Below are positions 13,644 through 24,193 of a DNA stretch of 64,000 nt, piece after piece. The stretch is from Escherichia coli O127:H6 str. E2348/69. Its GTDB lineage: Bacteria > Pseudomonadota > Gammaproteobacteria > Enterobacterales > Enterobacteriaceae. How positions within the stretch are numbered: the first letter of the stretch is position 1; each line of letters begins with the position of its first letter. Both the position numbers and the translations under genes were made by a program. The stretch lies in assembly GCF_000026545.1 (NCBI RefSeq), contig NC_011601.1, one strand, 5' to 3'. The notes under the pieces were generated by a model. That model searched no databases, was not told the DNA's origin, and saw only the letters and a program-made list of their open reading frames with translations.

Positions 13644-14501
13644 ATGAAATACATTGGAGCGCACGTTAGTGCTGCTGGCGGTCTGGCAAATGCCGCAATT
13701 CGCGCCGCCGAAATCGACGCAACCGCGTTTGCCTTGTTCACCAAAAACCAACGTCAGTGGCGTGCCGCACCGCTCACGACGCAAACCATCGATGAATTCA
13801 AAGCCGCCTGTGAAAAATATCACTACACATCGGCGCAAATTCTTCCCCACGACAGTTATCTGATTAACCTCGGACATCCGGTTGCTGAAGCTCTGGAAAA
13901 ATCGCGCGATGCCTTTATAGATGAAATGCAGCGTTGCGAACAGCTGGGGCTTTCTTTGCTCAACTTCCACCCTGGCAGCCATCTGATGCAGATTTCAGAA
14001 GAGGATTGCCTTGCGCGTATTGCCGAATCCATCAACATTGCGCTGGATAAAACTCAAGGTGTCACCGCGGTGATTGAAAACACCGCCGGTCAGGGCAGTA
14101 ACTTAGGGTTTAAATTCGAACATCTCGCGGCGATTATCGACGGCGTGGAAGATAAATCCCGCGTCGGCGTCTGCATTGATACCTGCCATGCTTTCGCTGC
14201 CGGGTATGATTTGCGTACTCCTGCCGAATGCGAGAAAACGTTCGCTGATTTTGCCCGTATTGTAGGCTTTAAGTATCTGCGCGGGATGCACCTCAACGAT
14301 GCGAAAAGCACCTTTGGCAGCCGCGTTGACCGTCATCATAGCCTCGGCGAAGGCAATATCGGTCATGATGCGTTCCGCTGGATCATGCAAGACGACCGTT
14401 TCGACGGCATTCCGCTGATCCTTGAAACCATCAACCCGGATATCTGGGCAGAAGAGATCGCCTGGCTGAAAGCGCAACAAACTGAAAAAGCGGTGGCCTG
14501 A
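13644..14501 (+). CDS. nfo: Endonuclease IV (AP endonuclease)
   Basis: 285-aa [42 protein letters not shown]... matches Nfo. Confidence 0.95.
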
Positions 14502-14504
14502 TCG

Positions 14505-15593
14505 ATGAACGACAGGGAAAAGCAGATTCTTAAAATTTTACGGCGTAACCCGCTGATTCAACAGAATGAAATCGCCGATATTCTGCAAATCAGCCGCTCA
14601 CGTGTTGCCGCTCATATTATGGATTTGATGCGCAAGGGTTTGATTAAAGGCAAAGGATATATCCTTACCGAGCAGGATTACTGTGTGGTTGTGGGTGCAA
14701 TCAATATGGATATTCGCGGAATGGCGGATATCCGTTACCCGCAAGCAGCCTCTCATCCAGGTTCTGTTCACTGTTCCGCAGGCGGCGTCGGACGTAATAT
14801 CGCGCATAACCTGGCTCTGCTTGGTCGGGATGTGCATTTAATTTCAGCTATTGGCAACGATTTTTACGGCGAGACATTACTGGAAGAAACGCGCCGCTCG
14901 GGCGTGAACGTTTCAAACTGCATTCGTCTGCATGGACACAGCACTGCAACTTATCTCGCTATCGCTAATAAGCAGGAAGAAACTATCCTGGCAATCAATG
15001 ACACACATATTCTGCAACAGCTAACGCCTCAACTGCTCAATACTTCACGGGACTTGATTCGCCATGCTGGTGTGGTGCTGGCTGATTGTAATCTCACACC
15101 TGAAGCCCTGGAGTGGGTCTTTACCATTGCTGATGAAATTCCGATGTTTGTCGATACCGTTTCCGAATTTAAAGCGAACAAAGTAAAAAACTGGTACAGC
15201 CGGATCCACACTCTGAAACCGACACAAAATGAACTGGAAATTTTGTGGGGGCAACCGATTAAAGACGACAACGATCGTATCAGAGCTGTAAATTCGCTGC
15301 ATCAACAAGGTGTTAAACGCATTTTTGTTTATCTGAAAGATGAATCTGTATTTTGCAGCGATAAGGATGGAGAACAATTTTTGCTGACCGCGCCAGCGCA
15401 TACGACAGTAGACAGTTTTGGTGCTGACGATGGTTTTATGGCGGGCCTGGTATATAGCTTTCTTGAAGGATACAGTTTCCGCGACAGCGCCCGTTTTGCG
15501 ATGGCCTGCGCGGCAATTTCACGCGCCAGCGGCAGCTTAAACAACCCTACCCTGTCTGCCGATAACGCGCTTTCATTAGTGCCAATGGTGTAA
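14505..15593 (+). CDS. yeiI: PfkB-family carbohydrate/nucleoside kinase with N-terminal winged-helix domain (YeiI)
   Basis: 362-aa ORF; N-terminal HTH-like segment (MNDREKQILKILRRNPLIQQNEIADILQISRSRVAAHIMDLMRKGLI) followed by a ribokinase-like core (GGVGRNIAHNLALLGR) paralogous to PsuK. Confidence 0.88.
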   Translation: MNDREKQILKILRRNPLIQQNEIADILQISRSRVAAHIMDLMRKGLIKGKGYILTEQDYCVVVGAINMDIRGMADIRYPQAASHPGSVHCSAGGVGRNIAHNLALLGRDVHLISAIGNDFYGETLLEETRRSGVNVSNCIRLHGHSTATYLAIANKQEETILAINDTHILQQLTPQLLNTSRDLIRHAGVVLADCNLTPEALEWVFTIADEIPMFVDTVSEFKANKVKNWYSRIHTLKPTQNELEILWGQPIKDDNDRIRAVNSLHQQGVKRIFVYLKDESVFCSDKDGEQFLLTAPAHTTVDSFGADDGFMAGLVYSFLEGYSFRDSARFAMACAAISRASGSLNNPTLSADNALSLVPMV

Positions 15594-15648: not shown

Positions 15649-16899
15649 CTACGCTAAACCAATAAAGAATCCTGCAATAGTAGCACTCATCAGGTTAGAA
15701 AGTGTCGCCGCCGCCAGCGCGCGTAAACCAAGTTGGGCGATTTCCGGCGCACGGTGTGGCGCAACCGCAGAAAACGCCCCCACCACCACCCCGATAGAAC
15801 CAAAGTTAGCGAAACCGCACAACGCGAAAGAAATAATCGCCACGGTTTTAGCATCCAGAGTGCCACCCGTTTGCAGATATGGCGAGAAATTGAGATAAGC
15901 GACAAATTCATTGATCGCCAGCTTCTGCCCAATCAAACTCCCGGCAAGATTTGCATCACTCCAGTCAACCCCCATCACCCACGCCAATGGGGCCAACAGG
16001 TAACCTAAAATCGACTCCAGCGAAGCATGTTCAAAACCAAACCAGCCGCCAACACCGCCGATAATACCGTTAATCAACGCAATTATTGCAACAAATGCCA
16101 TCACCACTGTCGCCACACCTGCGGCGATTTTCAGCCCGGTCATTGCCCCTGTTGCAGCGGCTTCAATAATGCTCTTTGGCGGTGTTTCGGTGAAAGAGAG
16201 GTTATTAAAGGAAACCTGCGAAGATTCCGTAGCCGGGCTTAACAGGCGGGCAAACAAGATCCCACCGGGAATCGCCATTAACGATGCCGCCAGCAGATAT
16301 TCCACAGGCACGCCCAGTGCGGCGTAACCAATCATTGTCGAACCAGCAATCGAGGCCATACCGCTGCAAATCGCTGTAAATAATTCATTGCGATTCAGCC
16401 GATCGATAAAGGGTTTGACGATTGCCGGAATTTCGTTTTGCCCGAGGAAAATGGTAGTGACCGCGACGAATGACTCGATCTTGCTGATATTTAATGCTTT
16501 CTGGAAGATACCGCCGAGAATTCGAATTAAGATCCCCATCACACCGATGTAGTAGAGAATACTCACCAGCGCGGTGACGAAGATAATTGCCGGTAACACC
16601 CTGAAACCAAAGATAAATCCTGCGCCATCAAATAAGGTATCCATTTTCGGTCCGACCAGAGAACCGAAAATAAATGCGCTACCCGCGTCGCTGTACGCCA
16701 TCACTTTATGGACGCCAAAAGCGACTTTTTCTGCGACCCAACGCCCTGGCGGTAACCAAAGCATTATGCCGCCAATCACGACCTGTAACACTAACGCCGC
16801 GCCAACGGTACGCAGGCTGATCTTCTTTTTGTTTACTGACAGCAAAAACGCAATAGCCAGTAATACCACCATTCCCAGAACACTTCTCATGACATCCAT
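15649..16899 (-). CDS. nupX: NupC-family nucleoside transporter NupX
   Basis: 416-aa ORF; concentrative nucleoside transporter fold; close paralog of the psuT product in this window. Confidence 0.9.
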   Translation of the reverse strand: MDVMRSVLGMVVLLAIAFLLSVNKKKISLRTVGAALVLQVVIGGIMLWLPPGRWVAEKVAFGVHKVMAYSDAGSAFIFGSLVGPKMDTLFDGAGFIFGFRVLPAIIFVTALVSILYYIGVMGILIRILGGIFQKALNISKIESFVAVTTIFLGQNEIPAIVKPFIDRLNRNELFTAICSGMASIAGSTMIGYAALGVPVEYLLAASLMAIPGGILFARLLSPATESSQVSFNNLSFTETPPKSIIEAAATGAMTGLKIAAGVATVVMAFVAIIALINGIIGGVGGWFGFEHASLESILGYLLAPLAWVMGVDWSDANLAGSLIGQKLAINEFVAYLNFSPYLQTGGTLDAKTVAIISFALCGFANFGSIGVVVGAFSAVAPHRAPEIAQLGLRALAAATLSNLMSATIAGFFIGLA

Positions 16900-16998
16900 A
16901 GTTATTATCTCTTCATGTCATTTTGGGCGACGGCTCTCTGCCCATCATAAATAGCCGGGCCTGCATCTTGCGATACTGACCCGGCTTGTTATCAACAC

Positions 16999-17940
16999 TT
17001 AATGGGTTTTTATGTAGCCGCGTACGCACTCTTCGACTAATCCCCAGAACCAGTCGGTATCAATAGTGATGCCGACTTTGGTATTGGCGGGCTTGCCAAG
17101 AACACCCAGCTCGTCGCAGACGGTACGCCCATAGCAAGGGCCACTGTTAACGTCCACTTCGACGTACATTTCCTGGGTTTTAATGCCATCAGGGTTAATC
17201 AAATAACCGATGCAGGTGGCGTCGTGCACCGGGCCGCCAGCCAGGCCGTAGTTTTCGAACTGCGTTTTGAGAGTGAAGTTCATGATGTCGCTGAACAGCT
17301 CTCCGGCAGGGCCGCCAGCCCTTTCCATCCGAGCAATCACATCCGGGGTGCAAACGGTCTGGTTGGTAAGATCGAGGCCCATCATCACTAATGGAACGCC
17401 GGAGGTGAACACCACACGTGCGGCCTCCGGGTCAGCAAAGATGTTGAACTCAGCAGATGGGGTGAAGTTGCCAGTACCATAAGCACCGCCCATCAGAACA
17501 ATTTCACGGATTTTCGGCAGGATCGCGGGTTGCATACGCATTGCCACCGCGATGTTTGACAACGGACCAACCGGCACCAGAGTGATATCGCCATCGCTTG
17601 CCATAAGGGTATCGATGATATATTTCACCGCATGAGTGTTTTCTGCCTGGCGGGTCAGCGGCTCGAATACCGGGCCATCCAGTCCGGTTTCACCGTGAAT
17701 ATTATCGGCAACAATTTGTTGACGCATAATGGGCTGCGGCATCCCCGCATAAACCGGAACATTAATCTCCAGTTTCTGGCAAACATTCAGGCCATTAATT
17801 AATGTTTTATCGAGGGTTTGATTACCCGCTACAATGGTGATACCTAATAAATCAATCGCCGGATGTTTCGCCGCCATCATTATAGCAATAGCATCATCAT
17901 GACCCGGATCACAATCCAGAATAATTTTTCTCTTTTCCAT
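16999..17940 (-). CDS. rihB: Pyrimidine-specific ribonucleoside hydrolase RihB
   Basis: 313-aa ORF with N-terminal DCDPGHDDA nucleoside-hydrolase motif; matches RihB (YeiK). Confidence 0.92.
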
Positions 17941-18108
17941 TGTTTATTTCCTCTGTTTCCAGTTGCGTTATTGTTTCTACAGCAAAGAAAATTCGATCGG
18001 GCCGATGATTGAATCTTAACAACAGCGTACGTATGCTAAATATGAGAAATCTCATAGCGGATAAACATCGTGAAAGAAATCCACAATAATGATCTTAAGC
18101 AGCAATTG

Positions 18109-18768
18109 ATGAGTGAATCTGCGTTTAAGGATTGCTTTTCAACGGATGTTTCAGCCGATACGCGGCTGTTTCATTTTTTAGCGCGTGACTACATTGTGCA
18201 GGAAGGGCAACAGCCGTCCTGGCTGTTTTACCTGACGCGAGGCCGCGCCAGGCTTTACGTCACGCTTGCTAATGGTCGCGTGTCGCTGATCGATTTCTTT
18301 GCCGCGCCCTGTTTTATTGGCGAGATTGAGTTAATCGACAAAGACCATGAACCGCGTGCAGTGCAGGCTATTGAAGAGTGTTGGTGCCTTGCGCTCCCTA
18401 TGAAGCATTACCGCCCGTTGTTATTAAACGACACGCTATTTTTACGAAAACTCTGCGTCACCTTAAGTCATAAAAATTATCGTAATATTGTTTCTTTAAC
18501 TCAGAATCAATCATTTCCGTTAGTGAATCGCCTGGCAGCTTTTATATTACTCTCGCAGGAAGGTGATCTTTATCACGAAAAGCATACGCAAGCGGCAGAG
18601 TATTTAGGCGTCTCTTATCGTCATCTTTTATATGTTCTCGCGCAATTCATTAATGACGGTTTATTAATTAAAAGCAAGAAAGGGTATCTCATTAAAAACA
18701 GAAAGCAGTTGTCAGGACTGGCGCTGGAGATGGACCCGGAGAATAAATTCTCCGGGATGATGCAGTAA
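18109..18768 (+). CDS. yeiL: CRP/FNR-family transcriptional regulator YeiL
   Basis: ORF 18070-18768 (232 aa) trimmed to [10 protein letters not shown]... giving the recalled 219 aa; cNMP-binding-like domain plus C-terminal HTH; start could be 18070. Confidence 0.85.
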
Positions 18769-20178: not shown

Positions 20179-21117
20179 TTAACCCACGAGACGCTGATAT
20201 TCTTTGGCAATTTCGCTCGCCAGAATGGCGTTATTAAAGACCAGTTGAATATTGGATTTCAGGCTATCACCGCCGGTTAGCTCCGCAACACGCGCCAGCA
20301 GGAACGGTGTACTCTCTTTCCCAATAACACCCTGTTCTTCGGCTTCAGCAACGGCTTGATCAATTGCTGCATTGATGGTTTCTTCTGGCATCGCAAACTG
20401 TTCCGGGATCGGGTTCGCTACCACCAGGCCGCCGTTCAAACCGGTTTGCCACTTCACTGCCATCGCGCGAGCAATTTCGCGGGCACTGTCAAGACGAATG
20501 CTGACTTCAAATGGGCTGGTTCGGCAGAAAAACGCAGGCAGCGCTTTTGTCTGATAACCAATTAACGGTACACCGAAGGTTTCTAAATATTCTGTTGTTA
20601 ATCCTAAATCGAGAATAGATTTTGCCCCCGCACAAACAACAGTGACATTGGTATTTGCCAGTTCCTGTAAATCGGCAGAAATATCGAAGGTATGTTCCGC
20701 TCCGCGATGCACACCACCAATACCTCCGGTTGCAAAAACTTTAATCCCAGCCAGTGCTGCAATAATCATGGTTGATGCAACGGTAGTCGCGCCATTTTTC
20801 CCTGCAGCAACGACAAAAGGTAAATCACGACGACTAACTTTCGTCACGTTATGTCCTTCACGGCCCAGCAATTCGATTTCTTCTTTACTTAAGCCCACTT
20901 TCATCACACCGCCAATAATGGCGATAGTGGCTGGTACTGCGCCCTGTTTACGAATTGTTTCTTCTACTTCAATTGCGGTTTGGGCATTTTGTGGGAATGG
21001 CATTCCGTGAGAAATTATGGTCGATTCCAGCGCAACAACCGGTTTTTTATTTTTTAAAGCATCCTGTACTTCAGCGGATATTTGTAATAATTCAGGGGAC
21101 AGAGTTAATTCAGACAT
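20179..21117 (-). CDS. psuG: Pseudouridine-5'-phosphate glycosidase PsuG
   Basis: 312-aa ORF MSELTLSPELLQISAEVQDALKNKKPVVALESTIISHGMPFPQN...; indigoidine-synthase-A-like fold; matches PsuG (YeiN). Confidence 0.92.
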   Translation of the reverse strand: MSELTLSPELLQISAEVQDALKNKKPVVALESTIISHGMPFPQNAQTAIEVEETIRKQGAVPATIAIIGGVMKVGLSKEEIELLGREGHNVTKVSRRDLPFVVAAGKNGATTVASTMIIAALAGIKVFATGGIGGVHRGAEHTFDISADLQELANTNVTVVCAGAKSILDLGLTTEYLETFGVPLIGYQTKALPAFFCRTSPFEVSIRLDSAREIARAMAVKWQTGLNGGLVVANPIPEQFAMPEETINAAIDQAVAEAEEQGVIGKESTPFLLARVAELTGGDSLKSNIQLVFNNAILASEIAKEYQRLVG

Positions 21118-22046
21118 TCTGTGTTCTCCACTAACGATGTAACATTGGCAATTGATAATTCAGGGTTGTTGGTATATTCACAGGCAAGTGCCATTGACGA
21201 ACATCCCTGCGCAAATCGAACAGAATCGATAAACGGCATACCGTCTACCCAACAGGAGGCCAGCCCCGCCATCATGGCGTCGCCTGCCCCAGTAACATTG
21301 ATGACATTCGTTTTAATAGGGGCCGACCACCCACTTTCACCGTTGATATCACTGTAGTAAACGCCATCCCCTCCCATGCTCAGCACCAGGCGGTTCAGGC
21401 CGTGTTGATGAAACCAGGCGGCGACCTTTGCGACATCTTCACGTCCGGAAAGTGCAATTCCGCTCAACGTTTCGGCTTCAAGACGGTTAGGTTTTAACGT
21501 ATGGATTTTGCTCAGATGATCGCGGATTTTGACGCATTTCCATGCCGATACCGGATCAATAAATACAGGCGTTTCCCCGCTATTTTCCAGAACCCAGACC
21601 AGCGCCTCTTCACTAAGGTTGCAATCCGCGACAATAACCTTTGCACCGCGAATAAACTCCTGATGCTGGGCAAGAAATTCTGCAGAAATACAGTCACTAA
21701 TACTCATATCATTTATCGCGACAAGCATTTCTCCTGTATTATCGAGCAGTGATAAATAGCTGGATGTATTCTCACCCGGAACAATTAAGCATTTATCGAC
21801 ATAAACACCGGATTGATTAGTTTGCGCCAGTAATGATTGCCCATAAAAATCACCACCTACTGCACTTAAAAGCCAGGCATTTTTCCCCAGTAACGCCAGA
21901 TTATGAGCGATATTCCTTCCCACGCCACCTGGGGTAAATTTAATTTTTCCGGGATTCGAATCCGCATAATTCAATGGATGATGTGAATACCCAGCCACAT
22001 CAATATTCGCCGAGCCAATAATTACTATGTAGTCCTTTTCGCGCAT
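21105..22046 (-). CDS. psuK: Pseudouridine kinase PsuK (PfkB family)
   Basis: Frame 21105-22160 trimmed to MREKDYIVIIGSANIDVAGYS... giving the recalled 313 aa; overlaps the psuG start. Confidence 0.88.
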   Translation of the reverse strand: MREKDYIVIIGSANIDVAGYSHHPLNYADSNPGKIKFTPGGVGRNIAHNLALLGKNAWLLSAVGGDFYGQSLLAQTNQSGVYVDKCLIVPGENTSSYLSLLDNTGEMLVAINDMSISDCISAEFLAQHQEFIRGAKVIVADCNLSEEALVWVLENSGETPVFIDPVSAWKCVKIRDHLSKIHTLKPNRLEAETLSGIALSGREDVAKVAAWFHQHGLNRLVLSMGGDGVYYSDINGESGWSAPIKTNVINVTGAGDAMMAGLASCWVDGMPFIDSVRFAQGCSSMALACEYTNNPELSIANVTSLVENTECLN

Positions 22047-22289
22047 AGCACGCCCCCTGGCAATAAATTGCCAACGAAGAAATTGGGTAAAATAGTCATT
22101 ACAGTCAATAAGACTATTAGAGCACGTGTTCAGATTTAAACACATGTTCATAATAAGCATGTTTAACGTAATGTAAATCGATCAGAAAAAACGAAATCGG
22201 CCAGATATGAAGGCGGTCACAAAATTTGTCTATTTATGCAGCAACAAAAGAGAAAGTTGTGATGTGTAACACACAATATGGCAGGCAAG

Positions 22290-22314
22290 AAAAAGGGCAG
22301 AGATGTTTCTGCCC
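22290..22314 (-). terminator. Rho-independent terminator (distal terminator of the fruBKA transcript)
   Basis: Minus strand reads GGGCAGA-aacatc-TCTGCCC followed by TTTTT. Confidence 0.55.
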
Positions 22315-22345
22315 TCAGATTGTTGACAATGCGCGCTTTGTTCAT

Positions 22346-22444
22346 GCTGGATGTGGCGTAAACGCCTTATCCGACCTACAAAAGCGCAAAAATTCAATAT
22401 ATTGCAGGGTTCATGTAGGTCTGATAAGCATAGCGCATCAGGCA
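22346..22444. repeat. BIME: pair of inverted REP elements
   Basis: gctggatgtggcgtaaacgccttatccgacctac (22346-22379) and gtaggtctgataagcatagcgcatcaggca (22415-22444) both match REP consensus variants in opposite orientation. Confidence 0.6.
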
Positions 22445-22456
22445 ATTTTGCGTTTG

Positions 22457-22494
22457 TCATCATCGGGGCAGAGATGTCTCAGCCCCGATGATGA
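22457..22494. other. Perfect 13-bp-stem hairpin immediately 3' of fruA
   Basis: tcatcatcggggc (22457-22469) pairs perfectly with gccccgatgatga (22482-22494), 12-nt loop; no adjacent T-tract so not a classical intrinsic terminator. Confidence 0.5.
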
Positions 22495-22501
22495 AGAGAA
22501 A

Positions 22502-24193
22502 TTATGCGTTTTTTTCTACTATTTGTGTTTCCGGGCGTTTGAGGAAGGCATAGGCCAAACCCGCCACCAGCGTACCGGCAATAATTGCTACCAGGTAACC
22601 CAATACCGGCGTAATAGCGCCAGGGATCAGCAGAACAAACAGACCACCGTGTGGTGCCATCAGTTTCGCACCAATCGCCATTGAAATTGCGCCAGTCAGC
22701 GCCCCACCAACGATACAGCACGGTAGCACACGCATCGGATCACGAGCAGCAAACGGAATTGCACCTTCCGAAATAAAGCACAGACCAAGTACCAGAGCGG
22801 CTTTGCCACCTTCCTGCTGCGCTTTGTCGAATTTGCGACGCGCCACCATTGTTGCCAGACCCATTGCCAGCGGTGGCACCATACCTGCCGCCATAATCGC
22901 CGCCATCGGGCCATAGGTTTGAGTACTCAGCAGACCCACACCGAATGCGTACGCTGCTTTGTTTACCGGACCGCCCATGTCAGTACACATCATGCCACCG
23001 AGGATCGCCCCCAGCAGAACCGCATTCGCAGTCCCCATGGTCTGCAGCCAGTGAGTCAACCCATCGAGAATGCCAGCAACCGGTTTACCGATTAGGTAGA
23101 TCATCGCCAGACCGACCACCAGACTGGAAATTAGCGGAATGATCAGGATCGGTTTCAGTGCCTCCATACTCTGTGGCAGTTTCAGTTGCGTACTGATTAA
23201 CTTCGCAATGTAACCCGCCAGGAAGCCCGCAATAATACCACCAATGAAGCCAGAACCGGTGCTAACCGCCAGCATACCGCCAATCAGACCCGGCGTGAGA
23301 CCCGGACGATCGGCAATGGAGAAGGCAATATAACCTGCCAGTACCGGCACCATCAGCGCAAAGGCTGAACCACCACCAATCTGCATCAGCGCCGCTGCCA
23401 ACGTACCCGGCTCTTTAAACGCTTCGATACCAAAAGCAAAAGAAAGCGCGATACACAGACCACCTGCAACAACCATCGGCAGCATGTAAGAGACGCCCGT
23501 CAGCAAGTGACGGTAAGCACCTGCACTCTCTTTCTTACCTTCAGTGGTCGCTGTTTGAGTTTTGCCCGCCGGTTCATACGGCGTTGCTTCAGCAACCGCT
23601 TTATCCAGTTCCTGCGCAGTTTTCTTCAGCGCCAGACCGGTAGAGGTGCGATACATCGGTTTACCAGCAAATTTCGCCAGATCCACTTCGATATCTGCCG
23701 CCACAATCACCAGATCCGCTGCTGCGACTTCTTCAGGGGTGATTGCATTGCCCGCGCCAACAGAACCACGGGTTTCAACTTTCACCCACCAGCCACGTTT
23801 TTTCGCTTCGGTTTCAATGGCTTCAGCCGCCATAAAGGTGTGTGCTACGCCAGTCGGGCAAGCAGTCACCGCAACTACGCGTTTCGGACCGCTGGCAGCA
23901 ACCGGTGCTGTCGCAGCGACCGGCGCAGTGTAAGGTTTCGCATGGCCTTTGGCTTCACTCAGGAACAACTCAGGGTGCGCAACTGCCCGGGAAATATCAC
24001 CCAGCCAGACATTTTTACCGTTCAGCGCGCTGTCATTCGGGATGGAATCACCGAGAACAATCGCCATTTCTGCGTCGTTCGGATTGTCGATGATTTCCAG
24101 TTTTGCTTTTCGCGCCGCCGCGCCCAGCAGGGTCTTCGCCATATAGGCGCGTGCCTGACCGAGATTAGCGTCAATAATCAGCAGCGTTTTCAT
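22502..24193 (-). CDS. fruA: Fructose PTS EIIB'BC component FruA
   Basis: 563-aa ORF matching FruA. Confidence 0.95.
   Translation of the reverse strand: MKTLLIIDANLGQARAYMAKTLLGAAARKAKLEIIDNPNDAEMAIVLGDSIPNDSALNGKNVWLGDISRAVAHPELFLSEAKGHAKPYTAPVAATAPVAASGPKRVVAVTACPTGVAHTFMAAEAIETEAKKRGWWVKVETRGSVGAGNAITPEEVAAADLVIVAADIEVDLAKFAGKPMYRTSTGLALKKTAQELDKAVAEATPYEPAGKTQTATTEGKKESAGAYRHLLTGVSYMLPMVVAGGLCIALSFAFGIEAFKEPGTLAAALMQIGGGSAFALMVPVLAGYIAFSIADRPGLTPGLIGGMLAVSTGSGFIGGIIAGFLAGYIAKLISTQLKLPQSMEALKPILIIPLISSLVVGLAMIYLIGKPVAGILDGLTHWLQTMGTANAVLLGAILGGMMCTDMGGPVNKAAYAFGVGLLSTQTYGPMAAIMAAGMVPPLAMGLATMVARRKFDKAQQEGGKAALVLGLCFISEGAIPFAARDPMRVLPCCIVGGALTGAISMAIGAKLMAPHGGLFVLLIPGAITPVLGYLVAIIAGTLVAGLAYAFLKRPETQIVEKNA

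Follow-up and report, generated by a model that had tools for sequence, protein, structure and literature searches.

The pseudouridine catabolic operon psuK-psuG-psuT lies within a 64,000-nucleotide stretch of Escherichia coli O127:H6 strain E2348/69 (contig NC_011601.1; the whole stretch is called the window below). The genes fruA, psuK, psuG, and psuT are all encoded on the minus strand, and a 455-bp intergenic gap separates fruA (end of the stop codon at 22502) from psuK (ATG at 22046..22044). Pseudouridine is the most abundant modified nucleoside, and the bacterial enzymes for its catabolism were reportedly identified in 2008. An initial annotation, made from the letters of the window, correctly placed three repeat features upstream of psuK, proposed them as candidate operators, and held the regulator of the operon to be undefined. 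The last statement agrees with our own searches, which found no published regulator of psuKGT in the databases or in the searchable literature, coverage of which is incomplete. The control region of psuK should extend over ~22047-22292, since it is bounded upstream by the fruBKA terminator (22316..22293) and by repetitive extragenic palindromic (REP) elements at ~22330-22450; the segment from 21900 to 22500 is a 100% match to strain NGF1.

All three repeats are present, as judged by a check of the sequence and by a repeat search. Repeat (a) is a perfect 7-nt inverted repeat (aatagtc, 22091-22097; gactatt, 22112-22118) with 14 nt between its arms. Repeat (b) is a direct repeat (cacgtgttca, 22123-22132; cacatgttca, 22141-22150), 9/10 identical with a start-to-start distance of 18, which the search could extend to 17 nt at 76% identity. 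Repeat (c) is an inverted repeat (ttaaacacatg, 22136-22146; catgtttaa, 22158-22166) with a perfect 7-nt core, TTAAACA/TGTTTAA; its longer form requires a 2-nt indel. When 22047-22292 was subjected to 1,000 dinucleotide shuffles, a 10-nt direct repeat with at most one mismatch was reached in 17% of them, a frequency that, with a G+C content of 37%, would favor attributing the repeats to chance in AT-rich intergenic DNA. Perfect 7-nt inverted repeats whose loop is ≤20 nt numbered three, however, against a mean of 0.31 in the shuffles, of which 1.4% reached this number, and the inverted and direct repeats were found jointly in 0.1%. The signal from the single sequence is modest, and the strong evidence is conservation across related loci: the sequence, spacing, and position of the repeats are conserved over >60 loci from several families, which leaves a chance origin very improbable.

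Phylogenetic footprinting of psuK upstream regions, a check that the initial annotation had suggested, was carried out on 70 loci recovered from GTDB species genomes. It showed conservation of repeat (b) and of the left arm of repeat (c), and none of the sequence of repeat (a). Against E. coli K-12 MG1655 the intergenic region is ~75% identical overall, with a conserved island at 22123-22179 that covers repeats (b) and (c) but not (a). The conserved element is a pair of 12-bp boxes (Table 1). Repeat (b) constitutes the left two-thirds of both, its second copy lying in box 1 and its first in box 2; the left arm of repeat (c) is the right part of box 1, and its right arm lies in the promoter spacer. 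The boxes are 18 bp apart, center to center, in the Enterobacterales and 19 bp apart in environmental Proteobacteria. From E. coli to Woeseiaceae-type loci the AAC/GTT half-sites are invariant, and the N4 center and the 6-nt spacer between boxes are variable.

Table 1. Features of the psuK control region and associated genes, in window coordinates
Feature	Position	Strand	Evidence or remark
psuK (pseudouridine kinase)	21105..22046	-	First gene of psuK-psuG-psuT; annotation of identical genomes; NCBIfam NF007355, 709 bits
Shine-Dalgarno sequence of psuK, GGGGG	22053..22057	-	Read from the sequence; orthologues keep AGAGG or AGGGG
Predicted stem-loop B (UGGCA...UGCCA), just 5' of the Shine-Dalgarno sequence	22058..22073	-	Compensatory pairs
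Predicted stem-loop A (repeat a), AAUAGUC-N14-GACUAUU	22091..22118	-	Same stem geometry in Citrobacter
Conserved block after box 2, CTCTAATA	22115..22122	-	Kept in most genera; CUC(U) may pair with the Shine-Dalgarno region
Putative operator box 2, GAACACGTGCTC	22120..22131	-	AACA and TG invariant in 40 distinct sites; 18 bp from box 1
Putative operator box 1, GAACATGTGTTT (RAAC-N4-GTTY)	22138..22149	-	AAC and TGTT invariant in 40 distinct sites
Predicted -10 hexamer, TATTAT	22150..22155	-	Promoter scan; TAnnAT after a 16-nt spacer in 36 loci
TTAAACATG in the promoter spacer, right arm of repeat (c)	22158..22166	-	AAAACA semiconserved
Predicted -35 hexamer, TTTACA (TTTACT in K-12 and most genera)	22172..22177	-	Promoter scan; conserved in ~50 loci
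CRP-like site, TGTGACCGCCTTCATA	22206..22221	-	9/10 positions of TGTGA-N6-TCACA; center at ~-70.5/-71.5 from the predicted start, class I position
Intrinsic terminator, end of the upstream fruBKA operon; upstream bound of the psuK control region	22293..22316	-	
yeiI, HTH_24 winged helix plus PfkB kinase-like domain; proposed regulator	14505..15593	+	Pfam domains

A 34-nt weight matrix, built from 40 distinct sites, proved selective for this element. It gave one match in the window, with a score of 42.7, the next and unrelated match scoring 7.9; over 844 kb of related loci there was one match per locus, always directly upstream of psuK or of a psuK gene fused to a helix-turn-helix (HTH) domain, including four loci outside the training set. 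No additional site scoring >12 was found upstream of yeiI, upstream of nupX-rihB, or elsewhere in the window or in those 844 kb, and a BLAST search gave one copy of the boxes per E. coli genome. The matrix was used instead of the short motif AACAYRTGTT, which was uninformative, with 4 matches in the window against 8.5 expected.

The boxes stand in a fixed relation to promoter elements. The best promoter of the region by consensus scan is TTTACA-16-TATTAT, with 10/12 matches and hexamers and spacer of the sigma-70 type, from which a psuK start is predicted at ~22143 (±2) on the minus strand, equivalent to ~2259390 of NC_000913.3. In every enterobacterial locus the conserved site, 34 nt long, takes in the final two bases of the -10 hexamer and runs from there across the predicted +1; in the environmental loci the boxes lie just downstream of -10-like elements. 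Together the two boxes carry four AAAC/GTTT half-sites, extending from ~-6 to +24, or from ~-8 to +26 with their conserved flanks. A common order is found in Escherichia, Citrobacter, Buttiauxella, Enterobacter, Kosakonia, Phytobacter, Klebsiella, Leclercia, and Kluyvera: TGTGA-N6-TCAWA, 44 bp, TTTACT, a 16-nt spacer, TAnnAT, RAAC-N4-GTTY, 6 nt, and RAAC-N4-GYTY. The repeats therefore appear mostly to represent a conserved pair of protein-binding boxes on the psuK promoter, and the proposal that they are operators holds for repeat (b) and the left arm of repeat (c), which form the double box over the -10 hexamer and predicted start. It does not hold for repeat (a), which is conserved not in sequence but in stem geometry, with covarying inner pairs in Citrobacter. 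The right arm of (c) is only semiconserved; its AAAACA occurs in Escherichia, Citrobacter, and Enterobacter but is missing from Klebsiella and Leclercia, and TTAAACATG is possibly a third, weak half-site.

Upstream of the promoter, TGTGA-N6-TCAWA is placed exactly 44 bp from the -35 hexamer in 31 loci, despite diverged sequence between the two. In a published transcriptome, psuT and psuG fall along with mal, mgl, man, and tre genes (PMC12803456). The match to the CRP consensus, its position, and this coregulation suggest that CRP activates psuKGT.

The promoter assignment also bears on a mutation known from experimental evolution. An A-to-C change in the psuK/fruA intergenic region recurs in the mouse gut (PMC7518454, PMC9509342) and in 1,200-day stationary phase (PMC7858067); the authors of these studies assigned it to the promoter and stated that psuK expression and growth change with it. 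We placed it by converting NC_000913.2 to NC_000913.3 coordinates with three srlR mutations from the same tables, for which 1978 was the sole fitting offset. Position 2257444 of NC_000913.2 is 2259422 of NC_000913.3, a T-to-G change in the sense of psuK with window equivalent 22175, and thus the third base of the -35 hexamer, where K-12 TTTACT becomes TTGACT. By comparison with the consensus, the change should raise psuK expression. The TTGACT allele is found in only 5 of 4,224 K-12-type genomes: four laboratory K-12 derivatives (ER1821R, ER2683, S17-1, and ST18) and fEC.1, from a pigeon. One of the most repeatable adaptive mutations of E. coli K-12 in the mouse gut and in long-term stationary phase can thereby be given a mechanism, in which it would act as a -35 up-mutation of a weak, predicted CRP-dependent, and probably repressed promoter.

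The segment between the predicted start and the ATG shows signs of RNA structure. Repeat (a) corresponds to stem-loop A, which in Citrobacter has the same 7-bp stem and 14-nt loop with other inner pairs (AATAACC/GGTTATT, AATAATT/GGTTATT, and AATAATCCTT/AAGGATTATT) and which is missing from the K-12-type allele. Because the inner pairs covary at a fixed geometry, repeat (a) is to be read as a predicted RNA stem-loop of the mRNA leader and not as a protein site. Stem-loop B is compensatory in 4 of its 5 pairs across 27 enterobacterial sequences, the K-12 form being UGGUA...UACCA, and the covariation score of the structure tested, stem B plus a box 1/box 2 helix, was reached by 0 of 500 shuffles. 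A further pairing is possible between 22128..22120 (CACGUGCUC, the right half of box 2 plus CTCT) and 22057..22049 (GGGGGCGUG); 90% of the cells of this anti-Shine-Dalgarno helix are paired across genera, mostly through wobble changes, in a helix derived from the same sequences. It is suggestive only, and would mask the ribosome-binding site.

These structures raise the question of whether the boxes act mainly as RNA, through a box 1:box 2 hairpin, stem-loops A and B, and the anti-Shine-Dalgarno pairing CAYGUGCUCU/AGRGGRCGUG, to control translation or stability, possibly via a ligand, a small RNA, or a protein. RNAalifold predicts the box 1/box 2 helix together with stem-loop B, the Shine-Dalgarno sequence is enclosed in many single-sequence folds, and the block TTAACGAACTCATT between stems A and B is conserved and predicted to be single stranded in many genera; the covariation of both stems and the wobble-preserving changes of the anti-Shine-Dalgarno helix point the same way. 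The box 1/box 2 helix itself fares less well, however: 5 of its 8 pairs never vary, and in the variable center Y-R pairs would form 3 times in 4 by chance. The predicted start falls within the 5' arm of this hairpin, box 1 has an invariant outer AAC that lacks a partner in most genera, and the boxes persist in fused-type and environmental loci that have essentially no leader, where they abut the ATG. Rfam covariance models gave no match in 22047-22290 at E≤1, the only ones being sub-threshold REP-related matches at 22340-22439. With the anti-Shine-Dalgarno structure derived from the sequences on which it is judged, we consider a mainly RNA-level function of the boxes unlikely.

Two separate observations were made on the leader. 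A block between stem-loops A and B, YTTAACGAACTCATT, is strongly conserved and predicted to be single stranded in Citrobacter, Enterobacter, Kosakonia, and related loci (e.g., L011:5945-5960), and is absent from both E. coli alleles. A sigma-54 reading of TGGCAA-N-TTGCC near the Shine-Dalgarno sequence was rejected on the grounds that its spacing falls short by one base and that the K-12 sequence reads TGGTAA..TTACC.

If the boxes bind a protein, comparative genomics points to YeiI as the most likely one. YeiI joins an N-terminal HTH_24 domain to a PfkB domain ~40% identical to PsuK; it is listed as of unknown function (PMC9061257) and named "sugar kinase" in NCBIfam, and our literature and database searches returned no published function for it. 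In most Enterobacteriaceae, yeiI is a convergent neighbor of psuKGT; it comes directly after psuT in E. albertii, most Citrobacter, Klebsiella, Enterobacter, and Leclercia, among others. In E. coli, nupX-rihB-yeiL (15649-18768) stands between psuT and yeiI; these genes are absent there in the five taxa just named, so that they can be regarded as an inserted nucleoside salvage module. The yeiI start is 4 nt past the nfo stop codon (14501-14505), with no double box upstream, and the nfo-yeiI pair is kept across genera, so yeiI is probably cotranscribed with the endonuclease IV gene.

Elsewhere PsuK itself carries the HTH. Yersinia, Serratia, Hafnia, and Photorhabdus have a single fused HTH-PsuK gene, followed by psuG, and in the fused genes of Yersiniaceae, Hafniaceae, and Morganellaceae the double box is found 35 nt before the ATG, behind a conserved TTTACT-17-TAAAAC. 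Nine loci from environmental or metagenome-assembled genomes encode an HTH-PfkB protein, ~40% identical to E. coli PsuK, with a PsuG-family gene; each has two boxes 19 bp apart just before the ATG, at -35 and -16 in 6 of the 9 and with variant boxes or positions in the other 3. An HTH_24-PfkB gene, either fused to psuK or in the cluster, accompanies the boxes in nearly every locus with a checkable flank; clusters that include yeiI have the double box ahead of psuK throughout, and no boxes were found at four psuK loci without the HTH, which served as a negative control.

The HTH is 91 to 98% identical across enterobacterial genera, against 72 to 86% for the whole of YeiI, and 67 to 75% identical between YeiI and the fused HTH-PsuK proteins; the recognition-helix region, SRSxVAxHIM, is conserved as far as the Woeseiaceae. 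No solved structure that includes the HTH was found for a protein of the YeiI type. In the crystal structure of E. coli PsuK, pseudouridine is contacted by N14, D16, S30', G41, V42, N45, Y97, M114, N143, V166, S167, K170, and D256 (PMC9247573); 12 of these 13 residues are invariant in YeiI and the fused proteins, and YeiI has Thr in place of M114. The GAGD motif of the kinases, which is replaced by GADD in YeiI, is kept in the HTH-PsuK fusions of Yersinia, Serratia, Photorhabdus, and the environmental loci.

We also considered whether the boxes are the operator of another regulator, the CRP/FNR-family protein YeiL or else DeoR, KdgR, or CytR. The gene yeiL adjoins psuT in E. coli, and the inner palindrome TGTTTAAATCTGAACA has the 5-N6-5 layout of CRP-family sites, but the taxa whose cluster lacks yeiL-rihB-nupX (E. 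albertii, most Citrobacter, Klebsiella, Enterobacter, and Leclercia) keep the boxes in full, and YeiL is therefore unlikely. DeoR, with the operator consensus TGTTAGAA-TTCTAACA, is likewise concerned with nucleoside catabolism, and its operator shares TGTT...AACA with the boxes, where it forms the outer part of the inner palindrome at 22142..22127. That segment, however, agrees by eye with the 16-bp palindrome TGTTAGAATTCTAACA at only ~11/16 positions, which is not a close match, and neither the flanking half-sites nor the phylogenetic distribution fits DeoR. For KdgR, again by comparison with its consensus, the register of the left half differs, and there is no TGCAA motif for CytR. The Woeseiaceae-type loci also carry the boxes, and there the only nearby HTH is the one fused to PsuK. 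Taken together, these points make a regulator other than YeiI improbable, slightly more so than a mainly RNA-level role of the boxes. PurR, NsrR, TyrR, ArgR, and PhoP were rejected as poor matches, by eye, to their consensus sequences, and a LexA box in the Citrobacter upstream region was rejected for want of an ACAG half.

We propose, with a probability of roughly 0.68, that YeiI represses psuKGT at the double box, that pseudouridine relieves this repression, and that CRP activates the operon. A weak sigma-70 promoter would be helped by CRP with cyclic AMP (cAMP) at TGTGA-N6-TCATA, centered at ~-70.5, which would offset the weak -35 hexamer. YeiI, bound to the four AAAC/GTTT half-sites from ~-8 to +26, would block RNA polymerase or initiation. 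Since the psuKGT pathway is catabolic, the ligand should induce; pseudouridine, or pseudouridine 5'-phosphate, would occupy the kinase-like domain of YeiI and cause its release, and full expression of psuKGT would need carbon limitation, through cAMP-CRP. The roles of kinase and autoregulator would be combined in the fused HTH-PsuK protein of Yersinia, Serratia, Hafnia, Photorhabdus, and distant Proteobacteria, and split in the Enterobacteriaceae between PsuK, which has no HTH, and YeiI.

Several observations weigh against this proposal. YeiI retains the catalytic Asp and might simply be a second kinase. The matrix reveals no second site upstream of yeiI, and hence no sign of autoregulation in E. 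coli; it is also partly circular, having been trained on sites that it recovers. The half-sites within a box are only 8 bp apart, which is unusually close for a dimer. Boxes 1 and 2 are mutually complementary, and the Shine-Dalgarno region is a possible pairing partner of box 2 plus CTCT, so that part of the conservation of the boxes could reflect the RNA. Finally, two published supplements of transcription start sites (Cappable-seq and SMRT-Cappable-seq) have no entry at the position of the predicted psuK start; we would expect this promoter to be silent in standard laboratory growth.

The proposed arrangement resembles several known systems. As in the ROK-family repressors NagC, Mlc, and XylR, a DNA-binding domain is joined in YeiI to a homologue of the pathway kinase. 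ROK operators overlap promoters of catabolic or transport operons, are freed by the substrate of the pathway, and often work with CRP activation, and the psuK boxes would act likewise. The predicted sensor fold of YeiI is PfkB/ribokinase and not ROK/ASKHA, however, its HTH is Pfam HTH_24, and the putative psuK operator consists of tandem short AAAC-N4-GTTT palindromes, unlike the one 23-bp palindrome of ROK proteins. The fused HTH-PsuK proteins, with GAGD and behind their own double box, suggest catalysis and autoregulation in one protein, as in BirA, the biotin ligase and bio repressor, and NadR. BirA differs in that its corepressor is a reaction intermediate and its operon biosynthetic, and in that E. 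coli would have the two functions on separate paralogues, PsuK and YeiI. In promoter layout psuK is like the class I CRP promoters with an overlapping repressor, lac and deoP2: a CRP-like site at ~-70.5/-71.5, a weak -35 hexamer, a candidate operator over the start, and a -35 up-mutation, TTTACT to TTGACT, that is selected where expression brings a benefit. For psuK, in contrast to lac and deoP2, CRP binding and the start are predicted, and the proposed repressor is an uncharacterized protein. A weak promoter that combines a repressor operator with a class I CRP site would be a classical kind of system, and its probable regulator would belong to an uncharacterized class, the kinase-derived HTH-PfkB proteins.

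HTH_24-PfkB homologues number in the thousands. More tentatively, at somewhat less than even odds, they may form an unrecognized family of transcription factors that are derived from enzymes and respond to a modified nucleoside. The ancestral protein would have been a kinase and autorepressor at tandem AAAC-N4-GTTT boxes, duplicated in the Enterobacteriaceae into PsuK and YeiI with a change from GAGD to GADD, and the enterobacterial leader may add an RNA fold that masks the Shine-Dalgarno sequence. With a candidate regulator, an operator proposed to the base pair, a predicted promoter, and a probable CRP input now named, control of the pseudouridine operon has a testable model. If it is true, the pseudouridine-responsive repressor/operator pair would be useful as a biosensor; there are current efforts to make pseudouridine for mRNA therapeutics.

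PsuG and PsuK are among the most reduced proteins in recA mutants of clinical E. coli under ciprofloxacin (PMC11039860), a result that hints at psu induction in the SOS response or in RNA turnover; no LexA box was seen in the psuK promoter. An open reading frame of 351 amino acids (21105..22160, minus strand), comprising psuK and 38 additional 5' codons through the putative operator and leader, was rejected as an extended PsuK, because K-12 does not keep this frame open and a conserved Shine-Dalgarno sequence precedes the annotated ATG at 22046.

Farther upstream, two similar G+C-rich hairpins (core GGGCAGAGATGT), at 22293-22316 and 22466-22495, lie on either side of the REP elements; a T run follows only the hairpin nearer the promoter, which was therefore assigned as the fruBKA terminator. 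The psuK promoter is dimorphic in E. coli: among 5,426 complete genomes, 1,199 have the window type and ~4,203 the K-12 type. Between the types PsuK is 88% identical, against 97 to 99% for PsuG, PsuT, and FruA, and the window allele (21105-22292, compared with MG1655) is closest to E. albertii (96%), a pattern that suggests an old recombination import of psuK and its promoter.

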